Origin: a virus
Strand: one strand, 5' to 3'
Virus record (IMG/VR): IMGVR_UViG_3300028840_005911
Coordinates: 128,447 to 192,446 of that record
DNA: 64,000 nucleotides
A program made the translations under genes and the position numbers. The notes below the pieces were generated by a model. It had not been told where the DNA came from, did no database searches, and worked only from the letters and a program-made list of their open reading frames with translations. This document shows positions 2,721 through 48,628 of the stretch, in pieces. Every line of letters begins with the position of its first letter. Positions within the stretch are counted from its first letter, which is position 1.

Positions 2721-2927
2721 TTATATCCTGGGTGCGTAAGCTCGAGGGCCTTCGATCTTCTTGGTCTTCAGCTTCACCGCCGGCGTCTTGGTAAGCCGAC
2801 CTTCGAAGCCGTGAGGGCACTTGTCTATCTTGGACGTGGTATTGCCCTGGATGTTCTGTTCCAGGACCACGTTGGCGATCTTCTCCAGCTCCTCGAGGAA
2901 GGCTGGGAGGAGGTCATGCAGGTCCAT
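2721..2927 (-). CDS. small virion-associated protein with FLEELEKIA leader
   Basis: 68 aa directly after the tube stop; leader shared with other head-module proteins. Confidence 0.65.
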   Translation of the reverse strand: MDLHDLLPAFLEELEKIANVVLEQNIQGNTTSKIDKCPHGFEGRLTKTPAVKLKTKKIEGPRAYAPRI

Positions 2928-2929
2928 TG

Positions 2930-3589
2930 CTACAGGGCCAGCTGATCCGAGGCATCCAAGCCAACCAGGGCAAGGGCGCTGACTGCGACGGGCAGAGCGC
3001 GCTCGAACTGAATGCCGACGTTCTCCTGGATGATCGTACCCTGGGAGTCGGTGGCGATGGTGTGGTTCGGGATGTAGCAGGACTCCATGTACACCGCTCC
3101 GACCGTGTCCTCGTTGGAGTCACGGAAGTAGGCCATCATCCCAATCGGCTGATTGAAGAGATCAGAGGCCAGATTGATGTACATGTTCTCGTAGCCCGGC
3201 GGGATCTTCACGTTGTGCGCGTTGGCCACGGTTAGAGCCCCGAGGTTGTTCGCCCCGATGACACTCGGCACCAGAGTGGGCGGGAACAGGTCCTGGTAGT
3301 ATGCATACAGGACGCGGAGCAGAGAGGGGCCGTGGTAGAGCACGCGGCTCAGACCAACCTGGCCCACCGTCCGACCACTGATGAAGAAGGACCGTTCGGA
3401 CCCGATCTCAAAGATCCGGTTGAACTGCCGGGTGTGACTGAGATTGAAGTTCTGCACAATCCCGATGGGGAAGACGATGTCGTCACCTGCTCCCTCGGCC
3501 AGGCCGGCTCCCACGAACGTCTGGTTTCCGATGTTGGCTAGACGGGGCGGACCTGCGGCGAGCAAGGTGAAGTTCCCCGAAAGAAATTG
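2930..3589 (-). CDS. tail tube protein, exon 2
   Basis: Tube-like motifs (PIGIVQNFNLSHTRQFNRIFEIGS, YMESCYI); downstream of sheath. The apparent TTG start has no RBS and an in-frame TAA two codons upstream. Confidence 0.8.
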   Translation of the reverse strand, partial: QFLSGNFTLLAAGPPRLANIGNQTFVGAGLAEGAGDDIVFPIGIVQNFNLSHTRQFNRIFEIGSERSFFISGRTVGQVGLSRVLYHGPSLLRVLYAYYQDLFPPTLVPSVIGANNLGALTVANAHNVKIPPGYENMYINLASDLFNQPIGMMAYFRDSNEDTVGAVYMESCYIPNHTIATDSQGTIIQENVGIQFERALPVAVSALALVGLDASDQLAL

Positions 3590-3846
3590 CAACCGTTACG
3601 AGGGCTGTTTAGACCCTCCCAGGAGTTTCCTCCTGGTGTCGGACTATATCTTCTCCCCGAAGGGAGCCGGGCACTCGTGGGGCCGCTTATTGCTTACGCT
3701 GCTCACAGCCCTAGTCTCTGAACCTTCCGCAGTACTACGTGCGCTTCCTACGGCTTGGCTGCTGATTCCCACCACCTCAACGTGCTGAGGGTCCCAGCAA
3801 TTCACCCGGTGCACCTGCATGATTACTCCTGCAGGGGGCCAAATTG
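3590..3846 (-). ncRNA. group I intron without ORF (257 nt) in the tail tube gene
   Basis: P AAUUGCUGGGA, Q AAUCAGCAGC, R UUCAGAGACUA, S AAGAUAUAGUCC. P1 has a U.G pair at the 5' splice site; P8 has a UUCG loop, P9 a GAAA loop; terminal G. Splicing restores the frame. Confidence 0.92.
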
Positions 3847-3909
3847 ACCGTCTACCAACCCCGCTTGAACATAGTTCGTATACGGAGCCCACTGAGATAA
3901 TCTAGCCAT
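3847..3909 (-). CDS. tail tube protein, exon 1 (MARLSQWAPYTNYVQAGLVDG)
   Basis: AGGAGG upstream, ATG at 3909, 21 codons ending GGT; joins in frame to QFLSGNF (spliced product 240 aa). Confidence 0.85.
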
Positions 3910-4615: not shown

Positions 4616-4619
4616 TCGA

Positions 4620-5345: not shown

Positions 5346-5360
5346 TGTGTTCTCCTCTTC

Positions 5361-9844: not shown

Positions 9845-10630
9845 TTACGTGGGATATGATTCCTCATCCACTTCTTGTTCAAAAGATACCTCGGGCGGCT
9901 CTGTCACCAATGGTTGTGATGTAACGACCCGTCCCCTCACTCGAGGGGGTCTAACTTGGTTAAGCCTCCCGGCGCTGTACATCGATTGAGCCTTGTTGAC
10001 CTTGAGGGTCAGCTCGAGCTTCCTCCAGACCTGGGTGTCCAGGCTCCGAATGATCCACTGGGGTTGCCAGAAGAACGGCACCGTGACTACCACACCGATG
10101 AGCTCGTCCACGGCCAGCGGGCCGACGTAGGCGGACGCCGGAGACTCTTCGCTGATTCCATGGTTCTGCGCCACCTTGTGGATGCCATCGATCTTGCACA
10201 TGATCCTGTGGAACACGTTCGTGTAGAACGAGGCGTTCCACGCCATTACCCTGGCGAAGTTGCCGGACTTGGACATGCAATGGTAAGCCATAGTCGAGGA
10301 GACCAGGTCTGTGTGCTTCCGCTCCCCGGTACTGAAGGTAGTATGCTGGTGTTGGTCGAGGCTGATGTTACCCCACTGCGACTTTCCGAGTATACATACG
10401 ATATGCGGCAGCTTCTCGATAGCCGATACCTCTGGCTTCTCAGCGGTTATCATGAGCTCGGTCATCTCTTCATTGGGGCTCCACCGAAGACCGCAACCCT
10501 CTGGGAACTCCCTGAAGAGGTTCTGCAAGAAGTAGACGAAGATGCGCTGAAGCTGGGTCATGGGGTCGGATCCCATCCCAGGTTCGAACGGCTGGAAAGG
10601 CCGCGCTGTTGCTGCGGGGCTGTTCGTCAT
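9845..10630 (-). CDS. putative neck/tail terminator protein
   Basis: Position just upstream of the sheath; 261 aa; function inferred from synteny. Confidence 0.5.
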   Translation of the reverse strand: MTNSPAATARPFQPFEPGMGSDPMTQLQRIFVYFLQNLFREFPEGCGLRWSPNEEMTELMITAEKPEVSAIEKLPHIVCILGKSQWGNISLDQHQHTTFSTGERKHTDLVSSTMAYHCMSKSGNFARVMAWNASFYTNVFHRIMCKIDGIHKVAQNHGISEESPASAYVGPLAVDELIGVVVTVPFFWQPQWIIRSLDTQVWRKLELTLKVNKAQSMYSAGRLNQVRPPRVRGRVVTSQPLVTEPPEVSFEQEVDEESYPT

Positions 10631-10950
10631 TTCTTCGCCTTCCTCATACCTTTGGCAGCGGCCTGAGCAGCGAGTTGCTGCTGTTGTCCAATCGCCATTG
10701 CCGCGCCCATCGTGGCCACACTACCAAGAGTCCCGGCTACCATCTTGAAGAGCTGGGGGTTCTTTATCAGATTGGGAGCCAGCTTCCTTATGCCGGGCTC
10801 TATCCCAGCTGCCAGGGCCATCCCTGCACCCATCCCGACTCCAGAAGCGAGCGCGTTCTTCAGAACCTGCTTCAAGACCGACTGGTTGACAGGAAGACTC
10901 TCCTCCTGAGCGATCTTCTCGAGCTCGTCTATGCAGGCATCGAAGTTCAT
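10627..10950 (-). CDS. small glycine-zipper protein with IDELEKIA leader
   Basis: MNFDACIDELEKIA leader; two GxxxG hydrophobic helices. Confidence 0.7.
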   Translation of the reverse strand: MNFDACIDELEKIAQEESLPVNQSVLKQVLKNALASGVGMGAGMALAAGIEPGIRKLAPNLIKNPQLFKMVAGTLGSVATMGAAMAIGQQQQLAAQAAAKGMRKAKK

Positions 10951-13514: not shown

Positions 13515-14117
13515 CTAGTAGCCGTAGCCGGGTTGAGGTGTTGGTTGAGATCCCAGCATGTAGGCGCCGAGACCAATCGGCACAGAAGCGCCAATTGCCA
13601 CGTTCAGTGGGTTGATCTTCCTGCCGCCCTTCCCCATGACCCACTTGCTCTTGCCAGAGACAACTTTCGGGACCCCTCCCAGCTGCCACTGGCTAGTGCC
13701 GGTCGCAACGCCCGGCTTCATCCCGAGTCTCTGAGCATAGGTACCGAGTCTCTTCTTCAGGATGCCTGCCCCAGCCTTCAGCCCACGGCCGATACCGAGG
13801 CTCCCGAGACCTTTCAAGAGGGCGATTCCGGCATTCTTCTCGATCTCATCCGCCCAGTTGACGTAGAACTCTGCGAGCTCGTTGCTGCCGGCCATCTTCT
13901 GGAGGCCGTCGAAGTTGCTTGCGACCTCATAGGCCAGGTCCCAAGGCTCCTTGCCGATCCCATAGGCCAGCTTGACGAACTTGGGGGTGAGAGCTCCGGA
14001 CTCCCATTCCTCCCGCTCGAGGTCGTAGAGATACTGCACCTCTGCAGTCTTCTCCATTGGAGGTCCGCAGAGGTCGAACAAAGTGTTCAGGTTCTGGACC
14101 AGGCTTTCAGAGTTCAT
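13515..14117 (-). CDS. KxA-motif virion protein with C-terminal hydrophobic helix
   Basis: EKTAE, VKLAY, QKMAG, DEIEKNAG; C-terminal IGASVPIGLGAYML. Confidence 0.65.
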   Translation of the reverse strand: MNSESLVQNLNTLFDLCGPPMEKTAEVQYLYDLEREEWESGALTPKFVKLAYGIGKEPWDLAYEVASNFDGLQKMAGSNELAEFYVNWADEIEKNAGIALLKGLGSLGIGRGLKAGAGILKKRLGTYAQRLGMKPGVATGTSQWQLGGVPKVVSGKSKWVMGKGGRKINPLNVAIGASVPIGLGAYMLGSQPTPQPGYGY

Positions 14118-15813: not shown

Positions 15814-16938
15814 CTAGTACTGCTGCACTGCGGGGAAATGCAACCCGTCATCTACCCTGTTGTTGATGGCACCGAGGTCCTCCTCAGCGCTCGGAATCTT
15901 GGCCTCGAACCCGGTGTCGGTGGCCGTGGGGCGAACCGAACCGCGATAGAGCTCGAGCTTCCGGCAGGAGGCGATGTTGATGATGCCGATTGCGATGTCC
16001 TCCCAGCTCTGCCAGGTGATGACGTTCGCGATCTTGTCGATGTAGAACTTCGTGTTGTTCAGGATGTAGAACTTCCCGAAGAACTGCGGAGCGGTGAACA
16101 CGTACACGTTGCCGGTACGCAGGATGTCCGTCTTCACTGTGCGGATCACCTTGCGGCCGAGCAGGGTGTTGTACTTGTACCCGTCCACGACGGTCTCGCT
16201 CTGGATGCGGTCACCGAAGTCCTCGACGGTCCACTGGAGCACATCGTCGTGGTCCCCCTCGGTCAGGAGAACGCGCTCGCTGCGCAGACGATTGTTGTCC
16301 AGGAGCTTGAAGAGGTTCACGAAGTCCGGGCGCTGGATCGGACGAACGGTGAAGTCCGTACCGTCAGCCGCCAGGGCCAGCTCACCCTTGACCACGGAGA
16401 CCACCTGCGCGTTGACATTGCCGGCGCGGATGTTGGTGGCGTTGTACTCCACGGTGGTCGTGGTGTTGGTCTCGGTCTGCAGAGCCTGCACACCGGCCTC
16501 GATGTGGCGCAGGAACTCGCGGTCCTCGATCTCCTGGATGTCCTTCACCGTGTTGTCCTCGATGACCTTGGTGATGGGCATCTCGTAGGCGAGGAGCTCC
16601 TGCTCGGGCTTCTCGAACTTCTCCGAGCTGATGGTGAAGAAGGGGACTTCGGCCTTGGGCGCACGCACGAAGCGGGCGGTAGGCTGGCTGCGGAAGTCAA
16701 TCGCCATGGCGCGGGACTGGGGTTCCACGTCGACGATCTTCACCAGGGTGTCGTGGTTGGTGCTGCGCTGGCAGTCCGTTCGGGTCACCTGCTCGGGGGG
16801 CAGGATGTGACGGCTGAACGCCACTTCGCGCAGTCGGTCACGAATCCACGATCCGCCCAGCTCGGCGGTTTTGTCCTTGCCTTCCTGAGAGTCGAGTCTC
16901 TGATTGAAGAGCTCGATTGCTGCTTGTACCATACTCAT
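15814..16938 (-). CDS. major capsid protein (HK97-like)
   Basis: 374 aa after protease/scaffold genes; strongly GC3-biased codons; MCP-like segments (IRDRLREVAFSRHILPP, YVFTAPQFFGKFY). Confidence 0.8.
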   Translation of the reverse strand: MSMVQAAIELFNQRLDSQEGKDKTAELGGSWIRDRLREVAFSRHILPPEQVTRTDCQRSTNHDTLVKIVDVEPQSRAMAIDFRSQPTARFVRAPKAEVPFFTISSEKFEKPEQELLAYEMPITKVIEDNTVKDIQEIEDREFLRHIEAGVQALQTETNTTTTVEYNATNIRAGNVNAQVVSVVKGELALAADGTDFTVRPIQRPDFVNLFKLLDNNRLRSERVLLTEGDHDDVLQWTVEDFGDRIQSETVVDGYKYNTLLGRKVIRTVKTDILRTGNVYVFTAPQFFGKFYILNNTKFYIDKIANVITWQSWEDIAIGIINIASCRKLELYRGSVRPTATDTGFEAKIPSAEEDLGAINNRVDDGLHFPAVQQY

Positions 16939-17468: not shown

Positions 17469-17816
17469 CTATCGAGGGTCTTCGCCGGTCATGACGAAAT
17501 GCTCGAAGGGGTGGGTTCCGTTGCCGGGGATCTCGGACAGCCCGAACATATTCGACTGAGGAGAGGCCAGCTTGATGGCTTCCTCGGTGACGTCCAGGTT
17601 CTCGACCTCCTTGAGAGCAGCAACCTTCGCTTCGATGGTGAGCTCGTCATTGAGGCCTTTCTCCTCCATCTCTTGAGCAATCTTGACGATCCGCTCGTCC
17701 CGCTCCTTGGCAGCGATCTTCTCCTTGAGATCCCTGTTCTCGTCGACGAGATTGCGAATCGCGGCCCCTGCCTGCTTCAGAAGGGCCTTGGCTTTCTGGG
17801 AACTGATCTTTTCCAT
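17469..17816 (-). CDS. coiled-coil scaffold-like protein
   Basis: Heptad-rich; EKIAA, VKIAQ, AKVAA, IKLAS motifs. Confidence 0.6.
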   Translation of the reverse strand: MEKISSQKAKALLKQAGAAIRNLVDENRDLKEKIAAKERDERIVKIAQEMEEKGLNDELTIEAKVAALKEVENLDVTEEAIKLASPQSNMFGLSEIPGNGTHPFEHFVMTGEDPR

Positions 17817-19327: not shown

Positions 19328-19591
19328 TTAGGTTCTCACCGGGGGCGGGGTAACCGCTTTGCTCTGTGCAGCTGTACCTTGCGCCGCCCTTGGTGGTTGC
19401 GAGTTCACTACGGTGTAGTTTGTTGACTTCACTTCGGACTTCAAAGAGGTAGAGGGCTTCTGTCCGGTGGTGACGGTGGCCGGCTTCGTCGGAGAGGAAA
19501 CAGCAATATTTGACGTAACAGGACCAATGGCCTTGTTCGCCGCTATCTTTGTCAGCTCATCCATGAACGAAGCCAGCATCACACTGTCCAT
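19328..19591 (-). CDS. small protein with FMDELTKIA leader
   Basis: GAGG RBS; shared leader followed by a Ser/Thr/Pro-rich tail. Confidence 0.65.
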   Translation of the reverse strand: MDSVMLASFMDELTKIAANKAIGPVTSNIAVSSPTKPATVTTGQKPSTSLKSEVKSTNYTVVNSQPPRAAQGTAAQSKAVTPPPVRT

Positions 19592-28942: not shown

Positions 28943-28943
28943 A

Positions 28944-29327
28944 TTACACCTCGTAAAACAGGTACCATCGACCATCTTTTTGCCTGATGTCTACGATATC
29001 AGACGCGGCTGCGAAGATGGCCGCCAGGGTAAGGTTGAAGGTGGCATCGTCGTTACCTGAGCCTCCGGTGACCGACACCGGGTTGGTCGGGTCGGTGGTG
29101 TACGCCCCCTCGAATTCTACCGCGATACCATCGATGACTTTTCCGGTCTCGCTTGTGACCTTGAGGGTAGCAGCAACCTCAAACCCTCCACCGACTACGG
29201 TCAGGATGTCGTCCACTTCGTACCCGTTCCCGCCAGCCACTATGGCCGCGTTGGTAACCTCCTTGGCGGCGCCGGCGAAGGTAGTGAGGGCATCCGGAGA
29301 CTCGAATTGAAGTACTCTTACTGCCAT
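28944..29327 (-). CDS. small structural protein with inserted beta domain
   Basis: Ends resemble the 44-aa ORF at 14127; central GGNGY..DDILTV.GG...GGSG..ATF module. Confidence 0.65.
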   Translation of the reverse strand: MAVRVLQFESPDALTTFAGAAKEVTNAAIVAGGNGYEVDDILTVVGGGFEVAATLKVTSETGKVIDGIAVEFEGAYTTDPTNPVSVTGGSGNDDATFNLTLAAIFAAASDIVDIRQKDGRWYLFYEV

Positions 29328-32266: not shown

Positions 32267-34258
32267 CTACTCCGCAAAGGTCAGTTCCTTCTGCTGGAGA
32301 GCCTTGAGGCCCTTGATGACGTCCTCCATGGCTACCAGCATTCTCTCCGCCGCCACCTCTGGAACATCGCTCAGGCCTATCCTGATTGCGATGAGCAGCT
32401 CGGCAATCTTGGACGAGGTCTCCTCGAGACAGGGAAGCATGTCCACGAAGGTGGCCACGTTCTCTGCATTCAGGAACCCCAGACCGAGGATCTTGTCTGT
32501 CGTGAGGGCATCGTTCAGGAACGCCGCCTCCTTCACCAGAGAGAAGCTCTTGATGGGGTGGGGAAGATTATCCAGATGCTCGCGGACGTTCTTCCTTGCC
32601 GACGCGATCTTCTCACTGACTGTACCCAGAACCTTGACCCCGGGGACTGTCACCAGATCACCCGAGCTTGCCTTGTCCAGGGACTCCTTGACGAAGTTGG
32701 GGATCATCCCGAGGGCTGCCCCCAGGAACTCAGCCTTGTCCCTGTCGATGAACTTCGTGTGTTCCTCAGCGATCTTGACGACCGAAGGCCCACGGAAGGA
32801 GTAGACGTCGCCGTCACCGACGATCTCCACCGTGCCTGCCCAGTCCTTGTTGGCGGTCTTGGAGAACATCATCGGCTCGGCCACGAGTTCGACCTTCGCC
32901 TTCAGGGGCATCCAGCAGAAGGTGGCCGGCACGGCGTACTCCATCTCCCCGACCTTGGTCACGACCTTCAGTCCCTCCGAGAAGGAGATGGTGACCTGCT
33001 CACCGGTGCCGCACTGTCCGACGTAGGACACCTGCCCGGTGGGTCCGGAGAAGGTGCTCGTGATGGTCATGGGAACGAACGCCTTGGCTGTGCCGTGGTC
33101 GATGTAGTAGAGCGCACCGTATCCCTGAGGAACGCCCCGGGGGATGTCAGTGGACTTGCTGACGAACTTGCCGGCGATCATCTCCTGCAGAGCGAACTGG
33201 GACCCGTTGTTGAACAGGCTGAGGGGGAGAGGCTGCATGTCCATGGACAAGAGGGTAGGGAAGACCCACCCCGTGAGCACGTTGCCCGTAGTGTCTTGGA
33301 CATTCCACAGACCAAACTGGTCAGCGTTCTTGACCTCCTCGGCATCCAGGGTGTCCTTGGCTGCGGCCTCCGGGCTGGCAGTGATGCTGCCGTCGCTCTC
33401 CATGCGGGCCACGAGATCCTGGTCACCGATGAGCTCCTGAGCGGTGCCCGGGTCGACCTCCTGTTCCTGGGGTGAGAACATGTCCGTGTTGGCCCACTTG
33501 ACCATGCACTTCCCGTTGTCCAGCTTCCGGATCTGAACCACGTCCGGGGGAATGCTCTCCCAAACCGTGTTGGCGAACTTCTTCAGGTCGGAGACCTCGA
33601 GGTTGGAAGCTGAGGCGAAGGCGGCCTGCATGCCCTCGTCACCCTCAGATATCTTGGCCCTGATGCTGGGGTCACTGGCTTCCTTCAGGAACCTGTTCTT
33701 GTGCTCCTCCAGGACAGTGCCGCTGAGCATAGGAAGGATGGGTACGAAGCTCTGGACCGAAGCCGCCTTGATTCCTGTGGAGTACCCACCGTAGGTCTGG
33801 GGCGGCACGAGCTCGTGGATGAGTGATGTCTCCCTGGGCTTCTCCCTGACCCCATCGAACAGGGCAGGACGGAACAGAGACTCACGGAGCTTGTCCTCAG
33901 TGAGATGATGGTAGGTCCGGCCGGTCATGAAGACATCGAGGGGGGACAGCATCTGGTCCTTGACGATGATCGGGATGTGGGCCTTGGACATCTTGTAGAG
34001 GCCACGCTCCTTGGTATTCATCTCGGTCTTCGGAGTGACCTCGATGGAGCCGAAGGCGTACCCACGCTCCTCATCCACCCGGTCCAGGATGATATGGACA
34101 TCGAACCCGCTGAGGTACGGCAGCTGCTTGTAGGCCTCTTGGGTGATCTCCTGCGGCCACGTGTCGACGTTGTCCGATAGCTTGATCATCATACCGGCCA
34201 GCTTCTCCTTGCCGGGGATCTCTATCGTGGAGTCGAGAAACAGGGGTTGCATTTCCAT
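32267..34258 (-). CDS. large KxA-motif virion protein
   Basis: 663 aa; EKLAG, IKAAS, SKTAN, VKIAE, EKIAS, VKEAA, SKIAE. Confidence 0.65.
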   Translation of the reverse strand: MEMQPLFLDSTIEIPGKEKLAGMMIKLSDNVDTWPQEITQEAYKQLPYLSGFDVHIILDRVDEERGYAFGSIEVTPKTEMNTKERGLYKMSKAHIPIIVKDQMLSPLDVFMTGRTYHHLTEDKLRESLFRPALFDGVREKPRETSLIHELVPPQTYGGYSTGIKAASVQSFVPILPMLSGTVLEEHKNRFLKEASDPSIRAKISEGDEGMQAAFASASNLEVSDLKKFANTVWESIPPDVVQIRKLDNGKCMVKWANTDMFSPQEQEVDPGTAQELIGDQDLVARMESDGSITASPEAAAKDTLDAEEVKNADQFGLWNVQDTTGNVLTGWVFPTLLSMDMQPLPLSLFNNGSQFALQEMIAGKFVSKSTDIPRGVPQGYGALYYIDHGTAKAFVPMTITSTFSGPTGQVSYVGQCGTGEQVTISFSEGLKVVTKVGEMEYAVPATFCWMPLKAKVELVAEPMMFSKTANKDWAGTVEIVGDGDVYSFRGPSVVKIAEEHTKFIDRDKAEFLGAALGMIPNFVKESLDKASSGDLVTVPGVKVLGTVSEKIASARKNVREHLDNLPHPIKSFSLVKEAAFLNDALTTDKILGLGFLNAENVATFVDMLPCLEETSSKIAELLIAIRIGLSDVPEVAAERMLVAMEDVIKGLKALQQKELTFAE

Positions 34259-35398: not shown

Positions 35399-38300
35399 TC
35401 AATAGAGCCAGGGCTCTTCTGGGGTCCCATCAGAAAACTCTTTTCCGTAGGCCATACCGGGGATCGGGTGGGTCCCATGAAGCATCGACTTCCACCCCTC
35501 TGCGGAGGCATCGAGCACGGTCTTCTTCAGGTTGGTCGCCTGCATCCTTGCCAACCAGTCCTGATGCATGTCCTGCGACAGGACTGCTGTGCCCCGTAGA
35601 ACAGGGTGGTACTTCACTGGCTTCTTGGCCCCCTCCACACTGTTGTACGACCTTATCTTGGAGGTTGGGGCCAGATCTCCACGGAGGTACTCCGGGTGGT
35701 CTCCGGGGTCTACCACCTGACTGAGGTTGGTTAAGGACCTAACGAAGGTCTCTATGTTCCTCCGCTTCACCGGGGACACGGCATCGTAGACGCCCTTCAC
35801 CTCGTCGGTGATGTACCTCTGGACTGTCCCTATGTTGGTGAGGGGCAGGAGCTCGAGGGGATTCTTGGGGCCTGTGGAGAGTGCGTCGCCCTTTTTCACC
35901 TCAGCGCCTCTTCGAACCGTAAGCTCTCGTCTCGAGGGAACGAAGTGTCTCTTGTCTTCTACGTACACATTGTGCCCGCCGGCCGGGTCTTTCTCTATCT
36001 TCCTCACCTTCCCGCTGCTCTGGGACAAGGTGGCCGCACCAGGGAGGGTCTTGGGGAACTCGAGTAGCTGTTCTATTCTCTTGAACTGGTTCCCTGCCGT
36101 CGTGCTCTTGGCCCCTACGATGGACCCCTCGTGGAAAGCGGACATGGAAAGTTGGGACATCGGCTCTCCCATAGCCTGGGAAGCTATGACTCCAAGGTTG
36201 GTACCCTTCGGGTATACTTGACCGTCAGGACCAAGACCATAACACTTCGAACACAATCCCTCACCGTGCGCGCACTTCAATGGCGTCCTTACTGGTATCT
36301 CACGAATCTTGTTGTTCTTCAACCTGTTGATGAGATCCATGTCAACGAGTGTCCCTGCGGGGATTACCCCCTTGTCCTTACCGACCTTCGATCCCAGGTT
36401 GACATCCTTGGCCGTGAACCTCCCAAGCGCATCTCTGTCGTTGATTGAAAGGGCGATGCCCTTCGCGGTCCCGCAGTCATCCGAGGTAACCATCTGGTTC
36501 ATGGTGATGTTCATCATCTTTTTGGACATGAACCCGGGGTCTTTGGTCTGTTTAGTCCTCCCGATGATGCCCATGCGAGCCCCATGCATTGAGGCCCAGT
36601 AAGACCCTACGTCCAGACCTTCGGAGAAGGACTTGTTGATTGGTGTGAGGACAGGCTCACCTTTGGAATCCACTACCAGGGTGGGACCGAAGACGATCTG
36701 CTTGAACTGGTTCCAGTTGCCCCGGGCCCCGGACCGGATCCAGTCGTACATTCTGTTCTGTGACCTGTCCAACTGCGCCTTGCCCCTGTCTGAGATATCC
36801 TTCGCCGCGTTGGCATATATCTTTGCCAGCTCCTTTTCGAGCCTGGCCTTGTTGGATATCCTCCTCTTCGCGGACTTGGCATCCTTGTCGGCTCTTCCGA
36901 GCCTGAGATCGCGGTACCGAGTGTCGGCAACGAAGTCGTCCAATCCAACCGAGAGACCTGTGGAGTAGAAGTTGCCAAGGTCTTTGTACCTGCCTGCTGT
37001 CCCTGAGAAACTTTTCAGGTCTTCAGACGCTACCCTGCTAAGGAGATCGTGGAGCGTCTTCTTGTCCAAAACGGTCTTCTTGTCCGTAAGCAGCTTCTCG
37101 TCACGGAGATCTTCGGGAAGGGCCTGGTATAGCATGAGCCTGGCCACCGTCGTCTCCTTAGCAGGTGCTCCCAGCTTCTCGAGCTCAGAGAGCTTTGAGA
37201 GCTCACGGATCTTTATGAGGTCAGTCTCTGCTATCTCACCTTTCTGAACAGCCCTGGCAGCATCTGCGGCCGTGTCGTACACCTTACCGGTTCTCTTCCC
37301 AGTCTCGGTCAACTTGTACAATCCAAGCATGGCCTCCTGCCGGGGCGTGTACATCAACAACCCGGTTGAGGGGCTGAACAGGTTGTTGGAGGGCATCATC
37401 TTCACGGTCTCGTCTACGGCTTGCTGGCTTACGGGAACGAAGGCCGACATGGTATCACCGTCGAAATCCCCGCCAAATCCTGAAGTAACTAAGGGGTTTA
37501 CCTTAATTGCTCTACCTTCGGTGAGTACAGGTCTGAATGCCTGGAGACCGTACTTATGCAGGACTGGGTCTCGCTTCATCATCACCGGGCGATCCTTGAC
37601 CACATTCTCCAACGCCCGGATGGCGATTGAGCTGTTGGTCCTAATCTTGTCCAAGGCTTCTCCGGGAGTGTAGCCCATCCTCACCAGGTTGGCGGATACG
37701 AAGGGCTTGTAGATCTCCATGGCCGCCTTTCTTGGCAGTCCTACTTCGTCTAGTGCGAGGGAGGGCTCAGGGACAATTGTCCCTCGAGCCGACATATCCT
37801 GCCGCCGGCCGATGATGTTCTTCTGGAAGAATGCCTCCTTCGGAGACTTTCCGCCGGACTCTCCCCCCAGGGTGGAGGCGATGCCGCTGAGCTGACGTCC
37901 ATACTGGGTCTTGCCTGTGAGAGCAAGGGCCCTCATACCATCGTACAAAGAGGACACCAGCTTGTGGCGCTCTTCTTCCGGAAGACCTTTTGGGAAGTCA
38001 CGCAGTTGATCGTTGACCTTTCCGATACCCTTGTATAGCCCATTGAGATCGTCGTAGTTGATATTCCCGTTGTCCATGATCGACACGGGTCGCATAGCCG
38101 GAGGCAGCACAGGTATCATGGAAGATGTGTAAGCCTCAACGGGGTTGAGCTCAGCCTTCTTCAGAGCCCGGAGGTATTTGATCTTCTTGTTTGCCTCGTC
38201 TAGCTTGGCACCTCTGAGATCCTTTACCTTCCCCTCCAGGGTTTTGAGATCCTTATCGACATCCACCTTCTTCAGCAGGTCGACTATTACGGGCGCTCCG

Positions 38301-41300
38301 GTCTTCCCGTCTACGTCCTTCGTTCCCTCGAGCAGTCCTTGGAAATCCTTTGCCTTCAGACCGGTAAGGGTTCTGATGGGCTTCTCGAATATCGGAGTAG
38401 GCATTCTTTCCGCCAGTGGGAGGTGGGACCACTTGTCTCCCAGCCGTCCCTGAGGCCACGTGGTGCCTGTCACCTTGGGATCGAACAGTCCTCCCTTCTC
38501 TGGGATGATGGATCTTCCTCGACTGGTGCCCTTGAACGCCTTGCCGGCATCTTCTATGGGGCCGTTGCTCATCTTGAGAACTTCATCGTCGGTCAGTGGG
38601 GACAGCACCAAGGAGTTTCCATCCTTGGTCACATCGACCCCCATACCCTTTAGGTAGCCTTCGAACTTCTTATAGACGAACGGTATCTTCGGAGGGGGGA
38701 TGGGCTCCCCATTTTGAAGAGCGAACCATACATCGTCGTTGAGATCAGACTTCATGGTCTGCATCTCCCTGATGTTGTGCCGTGCACCATGGGCCAGCAG
38801 AGCGTACAGACCCATGGCATCCATGCTCTGACCGCTCGTCGGACCGCCACCCTTCGGGGTCAGGTTGACGTCGTACTTGTCCCGGGACCGTGCCTGAAGC
38901 TTCTTCTCCGCCACGTGGTGGAGCTTCAGGATGTACTGCTTTCCGGTCAGGACTTTCTCGTACTTCTTGTTGGTCTTCGGATCTACAAGGTCCTCGGTGT
39001 CTGACAGGCCGTGCTTCTTGAGCTCAGCCTTCATGTTCCTGACATAGTCCTTGTTGTCGGGGTCGAAGTTGTCCGCGACATAAGGCTTGCCGGTCTTCTC
39101 AGCTATCTTGGATGCGGCAGTCTCGAGTACCTGGCCGAGGTTCATTCTGCTGGGGATACCAGTCTGGTTGAGCAGGACCTCCATGTGGTTGCCGTCTTTA
39201 TCCTGCGGCATCTCTCGGTCGGGGATGATGGCGGTGATGATGCCCTTGTTGGCACTCCTGCCCACGATCTTGTCACCAATGATTGCCGGAGAGTCGGCGC
39301 GGAGATAGACGTTAGTTTGCTTCCCGTGCTTCACTACCTTTACCACCTTAGCCGGGTAGTCGTGCTCCCACGTTATGGGCCTCGGCTTCACCGGGGTGAT
39401 AGATTTCTTGGGGAAGAACAGGTTGAGCATCTTCTGCTCTGGGGTGATCTCTTCCACCTTCAACTGACCGACCAAGAGATCTCCCGGTTCTACTGTCTCA
39501 CCGACTTTGATAACGGCATCGTCGTCCAGCTTCTTGACCTGGTCCTTGGTGTAGGCGCCTGCTGTGTGTGCGGTGAACTTCTTCTTGTCGAGGATGACAT
39601 TCTTCTCGGCAGTCACCCCCTCACGATGAAGATGCTGCGAGGTGAGCTTCTCAGCTGCCGACTCTGAGATGACTATCCCGTCCTCGTAGTTGTACCCCCT
39701 GTAAGGCATGTAGGCCGTCTTGAGAGAGGTACCAAGGGCAAACTTGCCGCCCTTGGTGAAGTTCGAGTCTGCTACGACCTGACCCTTCTTGACCTCGTCG
39801 CCTTTCTTGACCAGGGGGTTGGAATTGAGGAAGCTCTTGTTCTCATTGAGCGGGAAGTTGTCGTAGAGCTGGACCTCGTAGCGCTCTCCATCCTTTCCAC
39901 GAATGATTATCCCGTCGTCCTTGACCTTCTCTACCTTTCCTGACACCGGGGAGCTGTGAGAGTTGAACCTCCCAACAGCCTGTTCGAAGGTAAGGTTACC
40001 TCCGCCCTTCACCTGGACCAGAGGCTCCTCCCTATGCTTCAGGGAGACGGCCTGCTCAGCCTGCTTTGAAGCCATCATGGCCCTGGTACCTTGGGTGTTC
40101 TGCAGGAATGGAATCATATTGGCAGAAAAGTCGAACATCCCCTTCGAAGACTCGAGGATGTAGTCTACCTGCCCTGGCACCAAAACAGAGATGTTCCCCT
40201 CCCTATCAGAGACCTTCACCTCTTTCTCCCTGGGGACAGGTTGGCCCCCAACCCACTTGTACTGGTCCGGGAAGGCCAGGTTGGAGTGGAGGGCAGTGTA
40301 GGGGTCGATCTCTTCGTACTTCTGCTTCTTGGTATTGTAGGCCCGGATCTTCAGAGTGTTGCCATCCTTCTTTGCGCCCAGAGCCATCTGCAAGATGGTA
40401 CCGGTTCTCTCGCTCTCCGGGGTTTGAATGCTGTCGATGAATCCGATGTGGCTGTTACTGACACCTTGCGCCTCCAAAGTTAAGGCGTGGGCGCTCATGA
40501 TACCGTGCTCACCTCCAATTGTGGTCTTCCTGTTGCCATTCAGGAACCCCATCGGGTTGAGCTGCTCTGGTCTCTCAGAGATGACTGAGTTGGTGAAGAA
40601 CCTCTTGATCTGACCTCCGAATAGCTCCGGGTTGACTACGGTCCGCACCTTGTTCGACTTATCGACTACGGTCTGCAGTTTCCCCGATATCTTCCTGCGG
40701 ACATCCTTACTGAGCCTCTCGGTGAGAAGGTCCTCAGTGGAGTAGACATCCTTGAACTCGAGGGAGTCTCTATCGTCTGGCTCATCTTCCTGCCTCGAGA
40801 CCTTGAGGATCTTGTGTGACCCGGTAAGGAGCGCCTCGCCTGTTACCTTGTTGAAAGGTTTACCGAGGGTGATCTTCGTGGAGTCCGGCCTGAGAGCTGT
40901 ACCATCGAAGGCCTCAATGATCTTTTTCTGTGCCTCCTTCAAGTCGGTAGGGGCTTTCCCAGTGATGGCGCGGTACATCTTACGGATGTCGTTCTCAGGT
41001 TTTGCGGCCCTGTTGGCGGTCAGAAGCTCCTTACCCCACCTCTTCTCGATGTCATCATCGGATACCCCCAAGGTCTTCAAGATAGGGTACAGACCGATTG
41101 ACGAGCCACCGTATTTGATGCTCATCTTTTTGGTCTCGGGGCTGAACTCCATCGAGAACCCGCGCCCTTCCACGCCCTTGGCAAGGTTCCACTGAGAGGC
41201 GAGCTCACCGTTCTCCTTGATCCTGGTATAGACCCCGGACTTCAAACGCAGTTGGTTGGCCACCTGCCATTCATTGCCATCCACGATGTAGGTATACCGG

Positions 41301-41590
41301 CGGGTGATCTTGGGGATGCTCCCCACGTTTACAGTCTGTCTGTCCTTGATCTTACCGGTCTTGTTGTCCACCAGAGAGACGTCTGCACGGATTGGTACCG
41401 TCCATGACCTGCCCTTTACCTTCGCATCTGTCTGGGTACGGATGTCGTCGATGTCCTTGTTGTCGTCCACCCACACCTTGTGGGCCACGACCGTGTTCTT
41501 TGCGCCCTTGACCGGGAAGTATTCCTCTACGGTCTTGGACATCCGGTCCTTGAGAACATTGAACGCACTTTCAGGGTGGATGTAGGCCAT
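35399..41590 (-). CDS. single-chain two-barrel RNA polymerase (beta-beta' fusion)
   Basis: beta: GDKIVGR, GIPSRMNLGQ, YILKLHH, GGQ-like TSGQ. beta': GRRQDMSARGTI, RDPVLH, DFDGD, bridge helix HGARMG, trigger loop QAMGEPMSQLSM..FH. Confidence 0.95.
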   Translation of the reverse strand: MAYIHPESAFNVLKDRMSKTVEEYFPVKGAKNTVVAHKVWVDDNKDIDDIRTQTDAKVKGRSWTVPIRADVSLVDNKTGKIKDRQTVNVGSIPKITRRYTYIVDGNEWQVANQLRLKSGVYTRIKENGELASQWNLAKGVEGRGFSMEFSPETKKMSIKYGGSSIGLYPILKTLGVSDDDIEKRWGKELLTANRAAKPENDIRKMYRAITGKAPTDLKEAQKKIIEAFDGTALRPDSTKITLGKPFNKVTGEALLTGSHKILKVSRQEDEPDDRDSLEFKDVYSTEDLLTERLSKDVRRKISGKLQTVVDKSNKVRTVVNPELFGGQIKRFFTNSVISERPEQLNPMGFLNGNRKTTIGGEHGIMSAHALTLEAQGVSNSHIGFIDSIQTPESERTGTILQMALGAKKDGNTLKIRAYNTKKQKYEEIDPYTALHSNLAFPDQYKWVGGQPVPREKEVKVSDREGNISVLVPGQVDYILESSKGMFDFSANMIPFLQNTQGTRAMMASKQAEQAVSLKHREEPLVQVKGGGNLTFEQAVGRFNSHSSPVSGKVEKVKDDGIIIRGKDGERYEVQLYDNFPLNENKSFLNSNPLVKKGDEVKKGQVVADSNFTKGGKFALGTSLKTAYMPYRGYNYEDGIVISESAAEKLTSQHLHREGVTAEKNVILDKKKFTAHTAGAYTKDQVKKLDDDAVIKVGETVEPGDLLVGQLKVEEITPEQKMLNLFFPKKSITPVKPRPITWEHDYPAKVVKVVKHGKQTNVYLRADSPAIIGDKIVGRSANKGIITAIIPDREMPQDKDGNHMEVLLNQTGIPSRMNLGQVLETAASKIAEKTGKPYVADNFDPDNKDYVRNMKAELKKHGLSDTEDLVDPKTNKKYEKVLTGKQYILKLHHVAEKKLQARSRDKYDVNLTPKGGGPTSGQSMDAMGLYALLAHGARHNIREMQTMKSDLNDDVWFALQNGEPIPPPKIPFVYKKFEGYLKGMGVDVTKDGNSLVLSPLTDDEVLKMSNGPIEDAGKAFKGTSRGRSIIPEKGGLFDPKVTGTTWPQGRLGDKWSHLPLAERMPTPIFEKPIRTLTGLKAKDFQGLLEGTKDVDGKTGAPVIVDLLKKVDVDKDLKTLEGKVKDLRGAKLDEANKKIKYLRALKKAELNPVEAYTSSMIPVLPPAMRPVSIMDNGNINYDDLNGLYKGIGKVNDQLRDFPKGLPEEERHKLVSSLYDGMRALALTGKTQYGRQLSGIASTLGGESGGKSPKEAFFQKNIIGRRQDMSARGTIVPEPSLALDEVGLPRKAAMEIYKPFVSANLVRMGYTPGEALDKIRTNSSIAIRALENVVKDRPVMMKRDPVLHKYGLQAFRPVLTEGRAIKVNPLVTSGFGGDFDGDTMSAFVPVSQQAVDETVKMMPSNNLFSPSTGLLMYTPRQEAMLGLYKLTETGKRTGKVYDTAADAARAVQKGEIAETDLIKIRELSKLSELEKLGAPAKETTVARLMLYQALPEDLRDEKLLTDKKTVLDKKTLHDLLSRVASEDLKSFSGTAGRYKDLGNFYSTGLSVGLDDFVADTRYRDLRLGRADKDAKSAKRRISNKARLEKELAKIYANAAKDISDRGKAQLDRSQNRMYDWIRSGARGNWNQFKQIVFGPTLVVDSKGEPVLTPINKSFSEGLDVGSYWASMHGARMGIIGRTKQTKDPGFMSKKMMNITMNQMVTSDDCGTAKGIALSINDRDALGRFTAKDVNLGSKVGKDKGVIPAGTLVDMDLINRLKNNKIREIPVRTPLKCAHGEGLCSKCYGLGPDGQVYPKGTNLGVIASQAMGEPMSQLSMSAFHEGSIVGAKSTTAGNQFKRIEQLLEFPKTLPGAATLSQSSGKVRKIEKDPAGGHNVYVEDKRHFVPSRRELTVRRGAEVKKGDALSTGPKNPLELLPLTNIGTVQRYITDEVKGVYDAVSPVKRRNIETFVRSLTNLSQVVDPGDHPEYLRGDLAPTSKIRSYNSVEGAKKPVKYHPVLRGTAVLSQDMHQDWLARMQATNLKKTVLDASAEGWKSMLHGTHPIPGMAYGKEFSDGTPEEPWLY

Positions 41591-45500: not shown

Positions 45501-45887
45501 CGGGAAGTGGATAGAGATAAATGCGTTACCGTAGGCGTGGTAGTCGATCCCTGTCTCGATCTCGAACTGCTTGAACTCGAGGATGTCGTTGAACAGGAAT
45601 TCCCACTTCGTCCGTAAGGCAACGCTGTCCGAGTCGAGAATGAGATCGGTGACCGGGTACTCGGCCATCTTGTAGACGATGGCGTTGATGATCGGGTTGG
45701 TCAGGAAGTAATACCTGCACCACCTGAGCATTGCCTTGAACGAGCTCGGCAGGTAGGTGTGGGCCAGGTCGAAGAACGGAGATGGATACCTTACCGCACC
45801 AAGGGCCTCACTAGTCAGAGACCTACCACTGTTACGTGAGAACCTGAAGGACCCCGCCGGTCCGAAGTCGATTGGAGTAACACTCAT
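42558..45887 (-). CDS. portal protein containing an intein
   Basis: Portal-like segments (NPIINAIVYKMAEYPV, YGNAF, LYHMKRP..WGLP, VPIELVFGG); Gln/Met/Pro-rich tail; about 675 aa after splicing. Confidence 0.8.
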   Translation of the reverse strand: MSVTPIDFGPAGSFRFSRNSGRSLTSEALGAVRYPSPFFDLAHTYLPSSFKAMLRWCRYYFLTNPIINAIVYKMAEYPVTDLILDSDSVALRTKWEFLFNDILEFKQFEIETGIDYHAYGNAFISIHFPFQKYLVCKSCGKQTKVERTKYVFRDFKFEGECSCGRYGPYRVVDMPVRSVRDIRLIRWNPEYITIEHNEATGENRYYFTLPPNLANGIRLGKKETIERVAQPFIDAVKSNKSLLFSKDNLYHMKRPSIAQKDKGWGLPMILPVLKDTFYLQVLKKANECVSPETLIETIDGLKTADDVKVGDIVRTHRGRWQPVEDKWYRDSREDEIGVKITPTGLRAFPSVYSPNHPVLTIGRNDVNRRKDTKEKQISTVILRNPHLYEEYVCPAGQISVGDYVLYPRELRTDVTEIDVSEVSGIKGTDSYVYPGCSLETAEAFERLESGKELGNTTPEKTAKRYTKEGRLPNRFPSKLKMDEDLGYILGWYAGDGSCGARHVEFSIGSDDPSYYTEELISAVHRVFEVDCTLEEKNVAVSPVVLSNTIARHIIKGLVPGTATDKKVPEHILHASDEVKAAFLKGLFEADGHVREKSATLSTSSRDLAYDSYRMCLHLGCIATVRSFTTKDSILPSGRTIKGGNEHFHVMLTGPSKDRMLDLWSKDRATTIEVTSGKSGFFWKEYFATRVCAIEEVEEDTYIDFKITEDTTFCCPGVATKNSIAVEHIVPLRILFPQSAGPSSDVYSSVNLGSWRNKMERELIRWRLDNNYIPIMPIPVNQQTLGGDGKALLLSQEYRVWLEHIVAGMGVPIELVFGGLSFSGSNVSLRMLENKFLDEKSDRLRMVKHFIIPKIAAFMGWRTVAPRYKKFKMADDLQRSAFHLQLNQAGKLSDRSLMEDTDWDLDAEQKRMDDERVKMLEAQRQQAIGQATIQGESQMVIQKYQLRAQKSMLEAQAAGQPPMDPQAADQMQQMGMMAAGQPGAASPAAMGQMMVQEQGMANRMGMVPPVSDMVPQEEQPPPMEAAQSPLDASGPQMSVLDIANRIVAWLDALPDNQKQAELANLRQGNPQLYSLVVQVLNSRSGAHTNSAALPLPENKPPRRGPEAAMV
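43725..45026 (-). mobile_element. intein with LAGLIDADG endonuclease (434 aa)
   Basis: Starts C(VSPET); block B HPVL; LGYILGWYAGDG and AFLKGLFEADG; ends ATKN followed by Ser; more AT-rich than its flanks. Confidence 0.92.
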
Positions 45888-46684
45888 CGTGCACCGTAAT
45901 ACTTGGCGATTGTGCCCAGCTGCTCACCAGCCTCTTCAGGCGTAGGAGCCTCCGCAGCTTGTTGTAAAGAAGCACCGGCCCTCATCCTATCCAAAATCCT
46001 GCCGGCGGCCGACCCCCCTCTATGAAGGCCATACCACAGAGCCATGGGGGCGAGCATCCCGCCCGTCCCGGTACCAAGAAGCCACCCTGCAGCTCCTCCG
46101 GTCTCCCCAAGGAGCCTCTCAATGGTTCCCCCTTCCCCTGTAGGGGTCGGTTCCTTGGCTCCTACAATACTGGGGATGGCGCCGGCGGTGAAGCCTGTGA
46201 ACATACCCTTCTCCCCGACCGGGAGGTACTTCGTTGCCCGGGTCTTCCCTGTCCACCCACGGCGAGAGAGCTCCTCAGCCAAGGCCTTGACCCGGCCGGG
46301 TCCTTGTTCCCCACGGATAATGGACATGAGGGGAGTCCCTGCAGGTTGCTGAAGGTGGCTGGCTGATTGGAGACGCAGAGCCGGAAGCTTATACCAGGGT
46401 GTCCTTGTCCCATGTGCAGTGCGGGCCAACTCACTAACCAGTTCCTTCTTCGTTCTGGGATCAGCCATGGGGGCCATACTTCTCCACCCCCTGGCCATGC
46501 CCTCGAAAGGATGCTGAACCCGGTGGGCGAGCTCTTGAAGACCACCTGCGCCACCCTTAGCCGCCTTCCCCCTGAAGATACCCTTTAGCTTACCGACCAG
46601 TTTGGCTTTGTTTGCTGTCTTGGAGATGGACTCAGTCTCCTCGAAGAACCCGGAGAGCACAGTGTCATCTAGTGGGTGATCCAT
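45884..46684 (-). CDS. basic glycine-zipper protein with FFEETESISKTA leader
   Basis: Leader variant; two hydrophobic Gly-rich helices near the C-terminus. Confidence 0.65.
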   Translation of the reverse strand: MDHPLDDTVLSGFFEETESISKTANKAKLVGKLKGIFRGKAAKGGAGGLQELAHRVQHPFEGMARGWRSMAPMADPRTKKELVSELARTAHGTRTPWYKLPALRLQSASHLQQPAGTPLMSIIRGEQGPGRVKALAEELSRRGWTGKTRATKYLPVGEKGMFTGFTAGAIPSIVGAKEPTPTGEGGTIERLLGETGGAAGWLLGTGTGGMLAPMALWYGLHRGGSAAGRILDRMRAGASLQQAAEAPTPEEAGEQLGTIAKYYGAR

Positions 46685-47529
46685 GACTTGAGCTCCTCCA
46701 GCTGTTCCACCAACTGCTTACGCCGAAGCACCTGATACTTATAGGCTACCACAAGCTTCGCCGCTTGAACATCCTCGGGGATGGTCTCGTCGAGCTCGAG
46801 ACCCAGGTCATTTCTTAGCTCCTCGAATCTATCCTTGGCGGGCTCAGGATCTCGGGTGAGAAACTTCTCTATGTTTCTCCCCACATCTGGGGCAACGAAC
46901 CTCGAAGGCTTCCTGTCCAGAGGGTGCTCCCCGGTGAACCTTCCGACGCAAAAGTCACACCTGTTGTCGTCCAGGTCGTCGTAGTCCACAGTACCACAGT
47001 CCCGGCAATGGAACTTCGGTGCTGACAGAACAGTCTGTGCGAAGTCCAGGGGGTCGGGCAGGTAAGTGACCCCTTCATCGATGGCGCAGGCAGCCACGTA
47101 TCTCTCCACCTCGTCCGAGAACTTCTCCTTCTGAATGGAGTTGGCCATGTCCACTCCGGCCATGAGCTTCGACATAGTGCACTTCTGCCCGACGTCGAAC
47201 CTGGGTATGCAGTTGTTCAGAGCCTGGATAACCTTCTCGAAGACATGCCACTCTTCCCAGAACGCAGTGGACATACCCAAGGTGCGGACTGCCTGGATCT
47301 TATTCCAGTTGTGCTCGCTGATAGATGGAGCCCTAAACACATGAAGGATCTCTTTCTTCAGGGTCTCGGGCTCCCAGGCGAACCAATTGAAACCGAACTT
47401 CTCCATGAGGACCATGGAGAGGGCTACCGGATGTGCATCGTGGTAGCTGAAGAATCGGATGATGGGTTCAAGGGATGCTCGGACTGCGGCCGGAGCAGTG
47501 CGGGCATTGATACCCCACTTACTGCTCAT
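46669..47529 (-). CDS. hypothetical virion-module protein with Zn ribbon
   Basis: Start moved to MSSKW (ATG 47529, GAGGGG RBS); CRDCG...CDFC. Confidence 0.6.
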   Translation of the reverse strand: MSSKWGINARTAPAAVRASLEPIIRFFSYHDAHPVALSMVLMEKFGFNWFAWEPETLKKEILHVFRAPSISEHNWNKIQAVRTLGMSTAFWEEWHVFEKVIQALNNCIPRFDVGQKCTMSKLMAGVDMANSIQKEKFSDEVERYVAACAIDEGVTYLPDPLDFAQTVLSAPKFHCRDCGTVDYDDLDDNRCDFCVGRFTGEHPLDRKPSRFVAPDVGRNIEKFLTRDPEPAKDRFEELRNDLGLELDETIPEDVQAAKLVVAYKYQVLRRKQLVEQLEELKSWITH

Positions 47530-48628
47530 ACCCCTCTGACCCTCCCGAAGCGGACAGGTCCGCGCCCATCCGAGCGATGATCTTTTTCTGGGGGAGCGGC
47601 ATCGAGTTGAATACCCCCACCGGGTCCTTGGCGAACTCGCGTAGGATGTCGTCGGTGAAGATACGATACATGCCGCTCGCATGATTCTGGGCAAGGTTCT
47701 GCAGCTCACGGTCGGTGACCCTGTCTGCACCTTCCTCCCAAACGACCTTGGCGGTCTTGTCGATACCGAAGGTCGATGTCCAAGGATCTGGCACGGCCTG
47801 GTCCCACATGGAATCCAGGCCGTACCGCGTGTCGAAGACACGTAGGTGGTGGGCATAGTCATCAGGAAGGATAGAGGCGGACTTCTCGAACAGATCGTCC
47901 AGGAAGTCACGTTCCTCGGAGTGAGGGTCGAAGACGAGTTTCCTCATCTCCACTGCTTCTTTGCGTTGCTCTTCGCCGGCGTAGGTCTGGGACCCAGCCT
48001 CTTTGATCTTCTCATCGAGGGGGAACCCAACCTTGCCTGATTTCGCGGCGAGCTTCGTTGAGAACTGCCGACGCATCTCGGGATGCATCTGGTGCTGGTT
48101 CTCGAGGTAGTAACCCTGAGCCCTCTCGATGAGGTCCCAAGAGTTTATGGGGTAGAGCCTCTTCCCTTCCTTCGTGATGTAGCAGTAGTCCTCGTCGGAC
48201 TCGGGGGCGGCGACCTTCACCTTCGGTGTAGGCGACTGACCGGTGACGTCCACGATGTTGTCTCCGACGTCTTCCAGCTCAGCGGCCTTGGTCAGGGCAA
48301 CCGGAGGCAGGATACCATAGGTCACGCACTTCTCGACCAGGTTACTGGCCGCAGTCTTGATGGCATCGTCAGGCAGCTTGTCGCCGTGCTCCATGAAGTA
48401 CATGACCGAGATGGCTGTGGTCCCCGGGTCATGACATGCGAACTTGCGCATCATCTGACCACCATCGACCGCCACCAGGGCAAAGTCCTCGTTGGCCAGC
48501 TTGTTCTTCTCCTTGATGTCCGCCTCCTTGATGATGTCGGGAAGCGAGTCGACATCAGGGAACTTGGCCTTCAAAGTTCCACAGCGATCATCGTAAAAGT
48601 CCAGAACCACGCCTGCGTACTTGTTCAT
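47519..48628 (-). CDS. KxA-dense head protein, first gene of the virion module
   Basis: 369 aa with 12 KxA motifs by my count; GAGG RBS. Confidence 0.7.
   Translation of the reverse strand: MNKYAGVVLDFYDDRCGTLKAKFPDVDSLPDIIKEADIKEKNKLANEDFALVAVDGGQMMRKFACHDPGTTAISVMYFMEHGDKLPDDAIKTAASNLVEKCVTYGILPPVALTKAAELEDVGDNIVDVTGQSPTPKVKVAAPESDEDYCYITKEGKRLYPINSWDLIERAQGYYLENQHQMHPEMRRQFSTKLAAKSGKVGFPLDEKIKEAGSQTYAGEEQRKEAVEMRKLVFDPHSEERDFLDDLFEKSASILPDDYAHHLRVFDTRYGLDSMWDQAVPDPWTSTFGIDKTAKVVWEEGADRVTDRELQNLAQNHASGMYRIFTDDILREFAKDPVGVFNSMPLPQKKIIARMGADLSASGGSEGYEQ

Follow-up and report, generated by a model that had tools for sequence, protein, structure and literature searches.

Why should unrelated proteins of one virus begin with the same short acidic segment, and why should this segment end in a Lys-x-Ala tripeptide (K-x-A) that recurs throughout the head proteins? 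The question is raised by a 64,000-nucleotide stretch (the window; bases 128447-192446) of the IMG/VR virus record IMGVR_UViG_3300028840_005911. The record is a complete virus genome of 192,446 bp with direct terminal repeats (~56% GC), and positions 18-48628 of the window form a single minus-strand virion operon. Within this operon we found an excess of K-x-A tripeptides that is conserved among related viruses, and a protease with the fold of T4 gp21. We consider it probable, at odds of roughly 0.6, that a gp21-like protease with changed specificity reads K-x-A as P3 to P1, and that the shared N-terminal segment (hereafter the leader) is a cleavable propeptide resembling the T4 capsid-targeting sequence.

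The shared leader and its carriers

The leader follows the consensus x-[AS]-F-F-D-E-L-x-K-I-[AGS] and is N-terminal in five unrelated open reading frames (ORFs) of the window and internal in three more. The initial annotation of this DNA had proposed the five N-terminal copies, and translation recovered each at its expected position, all on the minus strand. The two internal copies that it listed, in ORFs 13515-14117 and 19610-20395, were also found, together with an extra one in the scaffold-like ORF 17843-19315. The copies are as follows.

2874-2927, minus strand: N-terminal leader (residues 1-18, ending K-I-A) of the 68-aa ORF 2721-2927
10909-10950, minus strand: N-terminal leader (residues 1-14, ending K-I-A) of the 107-aa ORF 10627-10950, kept by its orthologues
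19541-19591, minus strand: N-terminal leader (residues 1-17, ending K-I-A) of the 87-aa ORF 19328-19591, which lies between protease and scaffold
28871-28942, minus strand: N-terminal leader, long form, ending K-E-A, of ORF 28490-28975 (likely start 28942)
46613-46684, minus strand: N-terminal leader, long form, ending K-T-A, of the 266-aa ORF 45884-46684
13830-13856, minus strand: internal copy, residues 88-96 of ORF 13515-14117; K-T-A-E occupies residues 23-26 of the ORF
19154-19180, minus strand: internal leader-like copy, residues 46-54 of the scaffold-like 490-aa ORF 17843-19315, kept in 70% of 23 orthologues
20021-20056, minus strand: internal copy, residues 114-125 of the K-x-A-rich 261-aa ORF 19610-20395; all 15 orthologues keep the K-x-A at residue 123

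Conservation of the leader was followed in 15 orthologues of the 87-aa protein, where D11, E12 and K15 are invariant, F9 and L13 are conserved to at least 90%, position 17 is A, G or S, and the remainder drifts. Beyond the leader, conservation in this family is limited to T-N-Y-S and a C-terminal P-P-P-P-V-R-T, with a variable Pro/Ser/Thr-rich linker making up what is left. The 107-aa protein has two Gly-zipper-like hydrophobic segments in its predicted mature part, and a homologue search with it returned only itself.

Outside the window, five consecutive minus-strand ORFs at genome positions 50868-53022 (50.8-53.0 kb) begin with the leader or a close variant. One of them, of 252 aa, encodes a sigma-70 family factor (phrog_351, 7.6e-14; Sigma70_r3 above cut-off), in which a 14-residue leader ending K-T-A precedes a sigma match that starts at residue 26. 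The leader is thus carried by a sigma factor and by proteins that are small and either basic or rich in Gly. Comparison of ten leader-bearing or small head proteins with Pfam and PHROGs gave nothing significant, matches to Nif11 and others all having E > 0.01.

The distribution of the leader was specific to coding sequence. A tight regular expression matched in the window only in coding frames of the minus-strand operon, and 12 times in the whole genome (10 of them in minus-strand virion genes), with two further N-terminal copies elsewhere. At least 235 related stretches exist in IMG/VR; in the 80 loci that we kept (MCP, i.e. major capsid protein, identity 67-89%) the same expression matched 32 times on the coding strand and never on the opposite one. 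A loose expression gave 13 matches compared to 3.2 in shuffles, and six proteins compared to 0.6 had a match within their first 45 residues. Five complete related genomes held 21 copies of a degenerate DNA pattern, against four for the reversed control, and the majority of these started 6-15 residues past an ATG. Altogether the clade yielded 68 distinct leader instances, every one in a coding frame and ending K-x-[AGS]. The leader is therefore a short N-terminal peptide common to unrelated proteins, with the putative protease motif at its end, as capsid-targeting sequences are.

A profile of 55 leaders run against 1.84 billion proteins gave 23 matches at E <= 0.001, a small number because the motif is short. 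Twenty-two were phage-like, many with 2-5 copies per chain; the remaining one, a VWA-repeat protein (P0023), was discarded as a false positive. In these metagenomic proteins a K-x-[AGS] starts at most eight residues upstream of 20 of 31 internal leader copies, compared to a background of 17%, and the internal tag would therefore be a unit of ~10 residues between two predicted cuts.

Several further arrangements of the leader were observed. The metagenomic proteins P0002, P0003, P0010 and P0022 are polyproteins of 2-5 tandem modules with a leader at the start of each, and P0003 (1556 aa, five leader copies) has the look of a polyvalent protein. In another recurrent family, found in P0006, P0009, P0017 and P0021 and in the related loci L084 and L091, a basic segment that is conserved (R-M-x-V-P-Q-S-R-x-G-R-R-P-M ... 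K-K-E-K-D-G-S-L-Y-K) comes after the leader. A LigD-like protein of 504 aa (window 29318-30832) carries a leader-like K-A-A-F-F-N-E-L-E-R-I at its C-terminus, four residues short of the stop, and a 64-aa ORF in the related locus L093 likewise has the tag at its C-terminal end.

K-x-A tripeptides in the virion operon

To put the frequency of K-x-A on a statistical footing, all residue pairs at gaps 0-3 were compared with within-protein shuffles, using a gene set from a crude ORF caller to which three small ORFs were added by hand. In the operon Lys and Ala at gap 1 (K.A) were the top outlier, with 142 occurrences compared to 87 expected (z 6.4). The next pair overall reached z 4.6, and the second gap-1 pair was L.E (z 3.7). 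The excess was confined to the virion operon (z 6.8), with z 1.6 both for the other 168 genes of the genome and for the plus-strand (replication) genes of the window. The expectations that K-x-A would be commoner in head than in tail and replication proteins, that it would exceed what composition predicts, and that homologues would conserve it were all borne out. Neither composition nor helix periodicity accounts for the excess, because K.A alone stands out. Paralogy was likewise rejected, the two densest proteins (24106-25365 and 47519-48628) having no homology to each other. The sites discussed here, with expected numbers, are the following.

24106-25365, minus strand: 419-aa protein, 14 K-x-A (2.9 expected); orthologues at ~33% identity keep 8-15 sites
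47519-48628, minus strand: 369-aa protein, 12 K-x-A (2.6 expected)
32267-34258, minus strand: 663-aa virion-module protein, 11 K-x-A (3.7 expected)
17469-17816, minus strand: 115-aa protein, 5 K-x-A (1.3 expected), assessed also in orthologues
17843-19315, minus strand: scaffold-like 490-aa protein, 11 K-x-A (6.7 expected), with K-T-A-E at residues 22-25
15814-16938, minus strand: MCP (phrog_2522)
16864-16872, minus strand: K23-T-A25 of the MCP, predicted end of a 25-residue propeptide; K and A are each kept in 95% of 63 orthologues

The counts of 12 and 11 agree with those first reported for the 369-aa and scaffold-like proteins. Also rich in K-x-A are the protease ORF 20461-23268 (14, with 6.3 expected) and ORF 19610-20395 (nine, with 4.3 expected). 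The 419-aa protein is predicted from its sites to be cut into small pieces and to be a core or scaffold-like protein. K-x-A is at expectation in the terminase, the RNA polymerase (RNAP), the sheath-like ORF and the tube ORF. The tube ORF (2930-3592) contains a single Lys and lacks K-x-A, and in the other tail-like ORFs the counts do not exceed expectation. The initial annotation had held that the tail tube and the small structural proteins lack the leader. This stands for the tube, but the leader-bearing ORFs 2721-2927 and 10627-10950 lie among tail genes.

The sites have a preferred context, with a hydrophobic residue at -2, Glu or a hydrophobic residue at -1, and a small or acidic residue at +3. 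They are also placed non-randomly: a K-x-A begins within the N-terminal 40 residues in 19 of 37 operon proteins where 8.3 were expected (37 compared to 32 for other genes), and in many unrelated proteins the sites are concentrated at residues 12-36. K-T-A-E at residues 22-26 is common to the MCP, the scaffold-like ORF 17843-19315 and ORF 13515-14117. Within these proteins, K and A are better conserved inside K-x-A than elsewhere, and the number of sites is maintained at 33-45% identity. In the MCP, where a K-T-A-E near residue 23 had been noticed and proved to be K23-T-A-E26, Ser is the sole common replacement of the Ala among the 63 orthologues, and residues 1-20 are the least conserved part of the protein (0.64, compared to 0.81-0.87 for the rest).

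The same blind test was applied to T4. In its head genes I.E ranked first (35 compared to 15.7 expected, z 5.4) and L.E reached z 3.0, with 16 sites in gp22 where 5.6 were expected, while T4 tail genes showed no excess. The pair statistic therefore reads the known gp21 motif as P3-x-P1.

The prohead protease and the surrounding genes

A candidate enzyme is encoded next to the scaffold-like and MCP genes.

22519-23268, minus strand: prohead protease domain with the T4 gp21 fold, at the N-terminus (~235 residues; core about 33-235) of the 935-aa ORF
20461-23268, minus strand: the 935-aa ORF, with an InPase domain (Pfam)

An AlphaFold (AF2) model of residues 1-340, whose core has a predicted local distance difference test score (pLDDT) of 74-91, matched T4 gp21 (5jbl) with a Foldseek probability of 1.00 and a VIA Z of 12.6 (root-mean-square deviation 3.0, 151 of 165 residues). 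Herpesvirus proteases came next in the structure comparison (Z 4.7-6.5). H82, H118, H119 and S175 are invariant in 11 orthologues, which align well over the first ~250 residues. The candidate catalytic residues H119 and S175 are 56 residues apart, which by spacing in the sequence is similar to H85 and S140 in T4. Conserved K-x-A tripeptides stand ahead of the folded core, at residues 30-32, and immediately behind it, at 238-240 and 245-247, which are the places where self-release would need sites.

The complete genome gave no match to PF03420 (S77) at E <= 1 and none to PF04586 (S78) or PF03412 (C39 peptidase). Pfam found only InPase on the whole ORF, and the match to a PHROG head protease was weak (1.5e-5). 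With a fold match and no S77 or S78 match, the protease is a divergent member, placed at fold level only. A complex prediction of the protease core with the N-terminal 40 residues of the leader-bearing 87-aa protein scored 0.00, which counts neither for nor against binding. Residues 375-566 of the ORF, past the protease core, comprise a PioC/HiPIP-like stretch (PDB 6xyv, 4.6e-5) and the InPase domain; the latter has a further match in the C-terminus of a portal of solved structure (9b41_L).

Homologues of the protease occur in cultured phages, namely Salmonella phage Arash (gp222), which is the closest cultured relative by MCP (26% identity), Vibrio phages D181, D148 and D69, Bacillus phage G (gp19), cluster C mycobacteriophages and Rhodococcus phage E3. 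Among the gap-1 pairs of the head modules, K.A ranks first both in phage G (57 compared to 31.5, z 4.9) and in Vibrio D181 (65 compared to 44, z 3.4). In Arash, four head proteins adjoining the protease are enriched in K-x-A, and K-E-A occupies residues 27-29 of the MCP. R.A is enriched in the protease-scaffold fusions of Myrna and E3, and K.A as well in that of Myrna. Nine ORFs of phage G (JN638751) start with M/L-K-R-L-I-[KSR]-K-[SAG], a pattern with 15 forward matches and one in the control; this shared N-terminus differs from the leader in being basic, yet it ends in K-x-small. Cleavage was not analysed in the papers on Arash (PMC10585845) and phage G.

Other features of the virion operon, in which many ORFs are without any family match, are listed here.

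25787-27595, minus strand: large terminase, by family match
35399-41590, minus strand: fused beta-beta' RNAP of 2063 aa
42558-45887, minus strand: 1109-aa ORF upstream of the RNAP, with a Hint domain and a LAGLIDADG intein (PF14528, 6.7e-12); judged by its position, it may be the portal

The RNAP is a single beta-beta' chain without the leader and has K-G-A at residues 28-30.

Proposed cleavage and targeting, and competing explanations

If the protease has changed its specificity as we propose, it would recognise Lys-x-Ala as P3-P2-P1, tolerating Gly or Ser at P1, favouring a hydrophobic residue at P5 and accepting Glu or a hydrophobic residue at P4. The cut probably falls after the small residue, in view of the analogy to T4 and because Ala, Gly and Ser are interchangeable there. 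Within the prohead the MCP, the scaffold, many minor proteins and the enzyme itself would lose propeptides of ~15-35 residues. The enzyme would also cut its core loose from the C-terminal extension of 690 residues, reduce several core proteins dense in K-x-A to small peptides, and take the shared N-terminal leader off unrelated small proteins and the sigma factor. To judge by the T4 capsid-targeting sequence, the leader probably directs its carrier into the assembling head. Such an import role is made plausible by the tagged sigma factor and fits the presence of RNAP beta, beta' and sigma in Arash virions (PMC10585845). Both roles, the leader as import tag and K-x-A as protease site, had been suggested in the initial annotation. 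The second has gained indirect support, as a gp21-fold protease adjoins the scaffold and MCP genes and K-x-A sites bracket its core; for the first, analogy and the kinds of carriers are what speaks in its favour, and the position of the scissile bond is likewise put forward conditionally.

Several observations weigh against this reading. Known gp21-type enzymes cut after Glu, and as h-[DE]-E (h, hydrophobic) occurs in the leader too, it may be there that the chain is cut. The protease matches neither the S77 nor the S78 model of Pfam, so that the specificity of T4 is not transferable to it. Twelve K-x-A are present in the RNAP (13.8 expected), and a second K-x-A of the MCP, at residue 302, is 97% conserved and buried inside the fold; K-x-A alone is thus insufficient for cutting. 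Finally, coverage of the Arash sigma factor was reported as 100%, and this speaks against the loss of a tag in that protein.

The arrangement has precedents. It is like T4 gp21 and the capsid-targeting sequence of IPI-III and Alt in the protease fold (Z 12.6), in a short motif read as P3-x-P1, in sites that are abundant in the protease as well as in core and scaffold proteins and that the same statistic singles out in T4, and in a short N-terminal tag common to unrelated packaged proteins with the protease motif at its end. It differs in that the motif is Lys-x-Ala with a small P1 and not Leu/Ile-x-Glu, the tag is acidic and unrelated in sequence, and the protease lacks a Pfam S77 match and is fused to a 690-residue extension with the HiPIP-like region and InPase domain. 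The herpesvirus assemblin, whose motif is V/L/I-x-Ala followed by Ser, has a related fold (Z 4.7-6.5) and shares Ala at P1 and a defined P3 at the spacing proposed here; its P3 is hydrophobic instead of Lys, it has just two sites per substrate, and it belongs to an animal virus. HK97 gp4 (S78) and ClpP-like prohead proteases also remove an N-terminal MCP propeptide inside the prohead, but the present genome has no S78 match and its predicted propeptide has 25 residues compared to roughly 100 in the delta domain. Like phiKZ and SPN3US, with their proteases gp175 and gp245, the virus is a jumbo phage, and it would share with them a virion RNA polymerase, many processed head proteins, short (20-24 residues) and long N-terminal propeptides, multi-site propeptide cuts and a protease that cleaves itself on the C-terminal side (PMC10052503). 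In those two systems, however, cutting is after Glu and a shared leader has not been reported, and the RNAP here is a single fused beta-beta' chain.

Could the leader instead be a docking helix for scaffold, portal or chaperone that is never cleaved, with the K-x-A excess reflecting a preferred sequence of alpha-helical head proteins? The context h-E-K-h-A would suit an amphipathic helix, and the K-x-A-rich proteins look helical and acidic. However, the chemically similar pairs R.A, K.L, E.A and K.S fall outside the top eight gap-1 pairs and leave K.A standing alone, the sites lie at residues 12-36 of many unrelated proteins and on either side of the protease core, and the pair test retrieves the true cleavage motif in T4; we consider this explanation unlikely. 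Somewhat less likely still is that the enzyme has retained the preference of T4 gp21 for Glu and cleaves within the leader after h-[DE]-E, in which case K-I-A would be a prime-side recognition element and the other K-x-A exosite-binding motifs. All characterised gp21-type phage enzymes do cut after Glu (T4 after L/I-x-E; SPN3US, PMC10052503), h-[DE]-E is always present in the leader, and L.E is second among the gap-1 pairs (z 3.7). Glu is nevertheless at -1 in only 27 of 97 K-x-A sites, and the sites of MCP, scaffold and protease have no h-[DE]-E, whereas the Lys and the small residue are invariant and Ala, Gly and Ser exchange as a P1 pocket predicts.

The leader also has a superficial likeness to the double-glycine leaders (L-S-x-x-E-L-x-x-I-x-G-G) of bacteriocins or ribosomally synthesised and post-translationally modified peptides, which would be processed by a C39-type peptidase or a host enzyme and have nothing to do with head assembly; the multi-copy precursors with repeated leaders in metagenomes and the many small, Gly-rich mature parts could be seen in the same light. 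We regard this origin by E-L-x-x-I leaders as very improbable, since the complete genome encodes no C39 peptidase, the tag ends in K-x-[AGS] and not G-G, its carriers lie in the virion operon and include a sigma factor, and the K-x-A ending is common to MCP and scaffold. That the pattern is due to chance or composition has practically nothing in its favour apart from the shortness of the motif, and is countered by shuffles, frame and strand controls and conservation in orthologues.

A broader version of the proposal is tentative and, on our assessment, rather doubtful. F-F-D-E-L-x-K-I-A might be a portable address-and-release tag that, flanked by two K-x-A cuts, loads arbitrary cargo into the prohead and is then excised; the cargo would include the sigma factor, the LigD-like enzyme, small membrane-active or DNA-binding peptides and the multi-copy polyproteins. 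A whole clade of proteases with the gp21 fold, reaching from phage G to cluster C mycobacteriophages, would then have switched from Glu to basic-x-small, giving a second, independent packaging code. The initial annotation knew of no description of such a code, and none was found in the literature that we searched for the K-x-A motif, prohead protease motifs, Arash, phage G and Rhodococcus phage E3. The K-x-A code would be a variant of a known mechanism, the motif itself being previously undescribed in that literature.

To our knowledge, proteolytic head maturation and cargo loading of large phages are understood in only two systems, T4 and phiKZ/SPN3US, both of which cut after Glu. If our reading of K-x-A is true, a second specificity (Lys-x-small) with a targeting-like tag would offer a view of the co-evolution of protease and substrates. 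Since the protease is common to the cultured phages Arash, G and Vibrio D181, the reading is directly testable there. The pair-enrichment test, validated on T4, provides a general route from genomes alone to prohead protease motifs, and the tag would offer a means of bringing foreign proteins into the capsids of jumbo phages. For hundreds of uncultured jumbo phages it would become possible to predict from sequence which virion proteins mature and in what form, and likewise the sigma factor and RNA polymerase machinery that they package.

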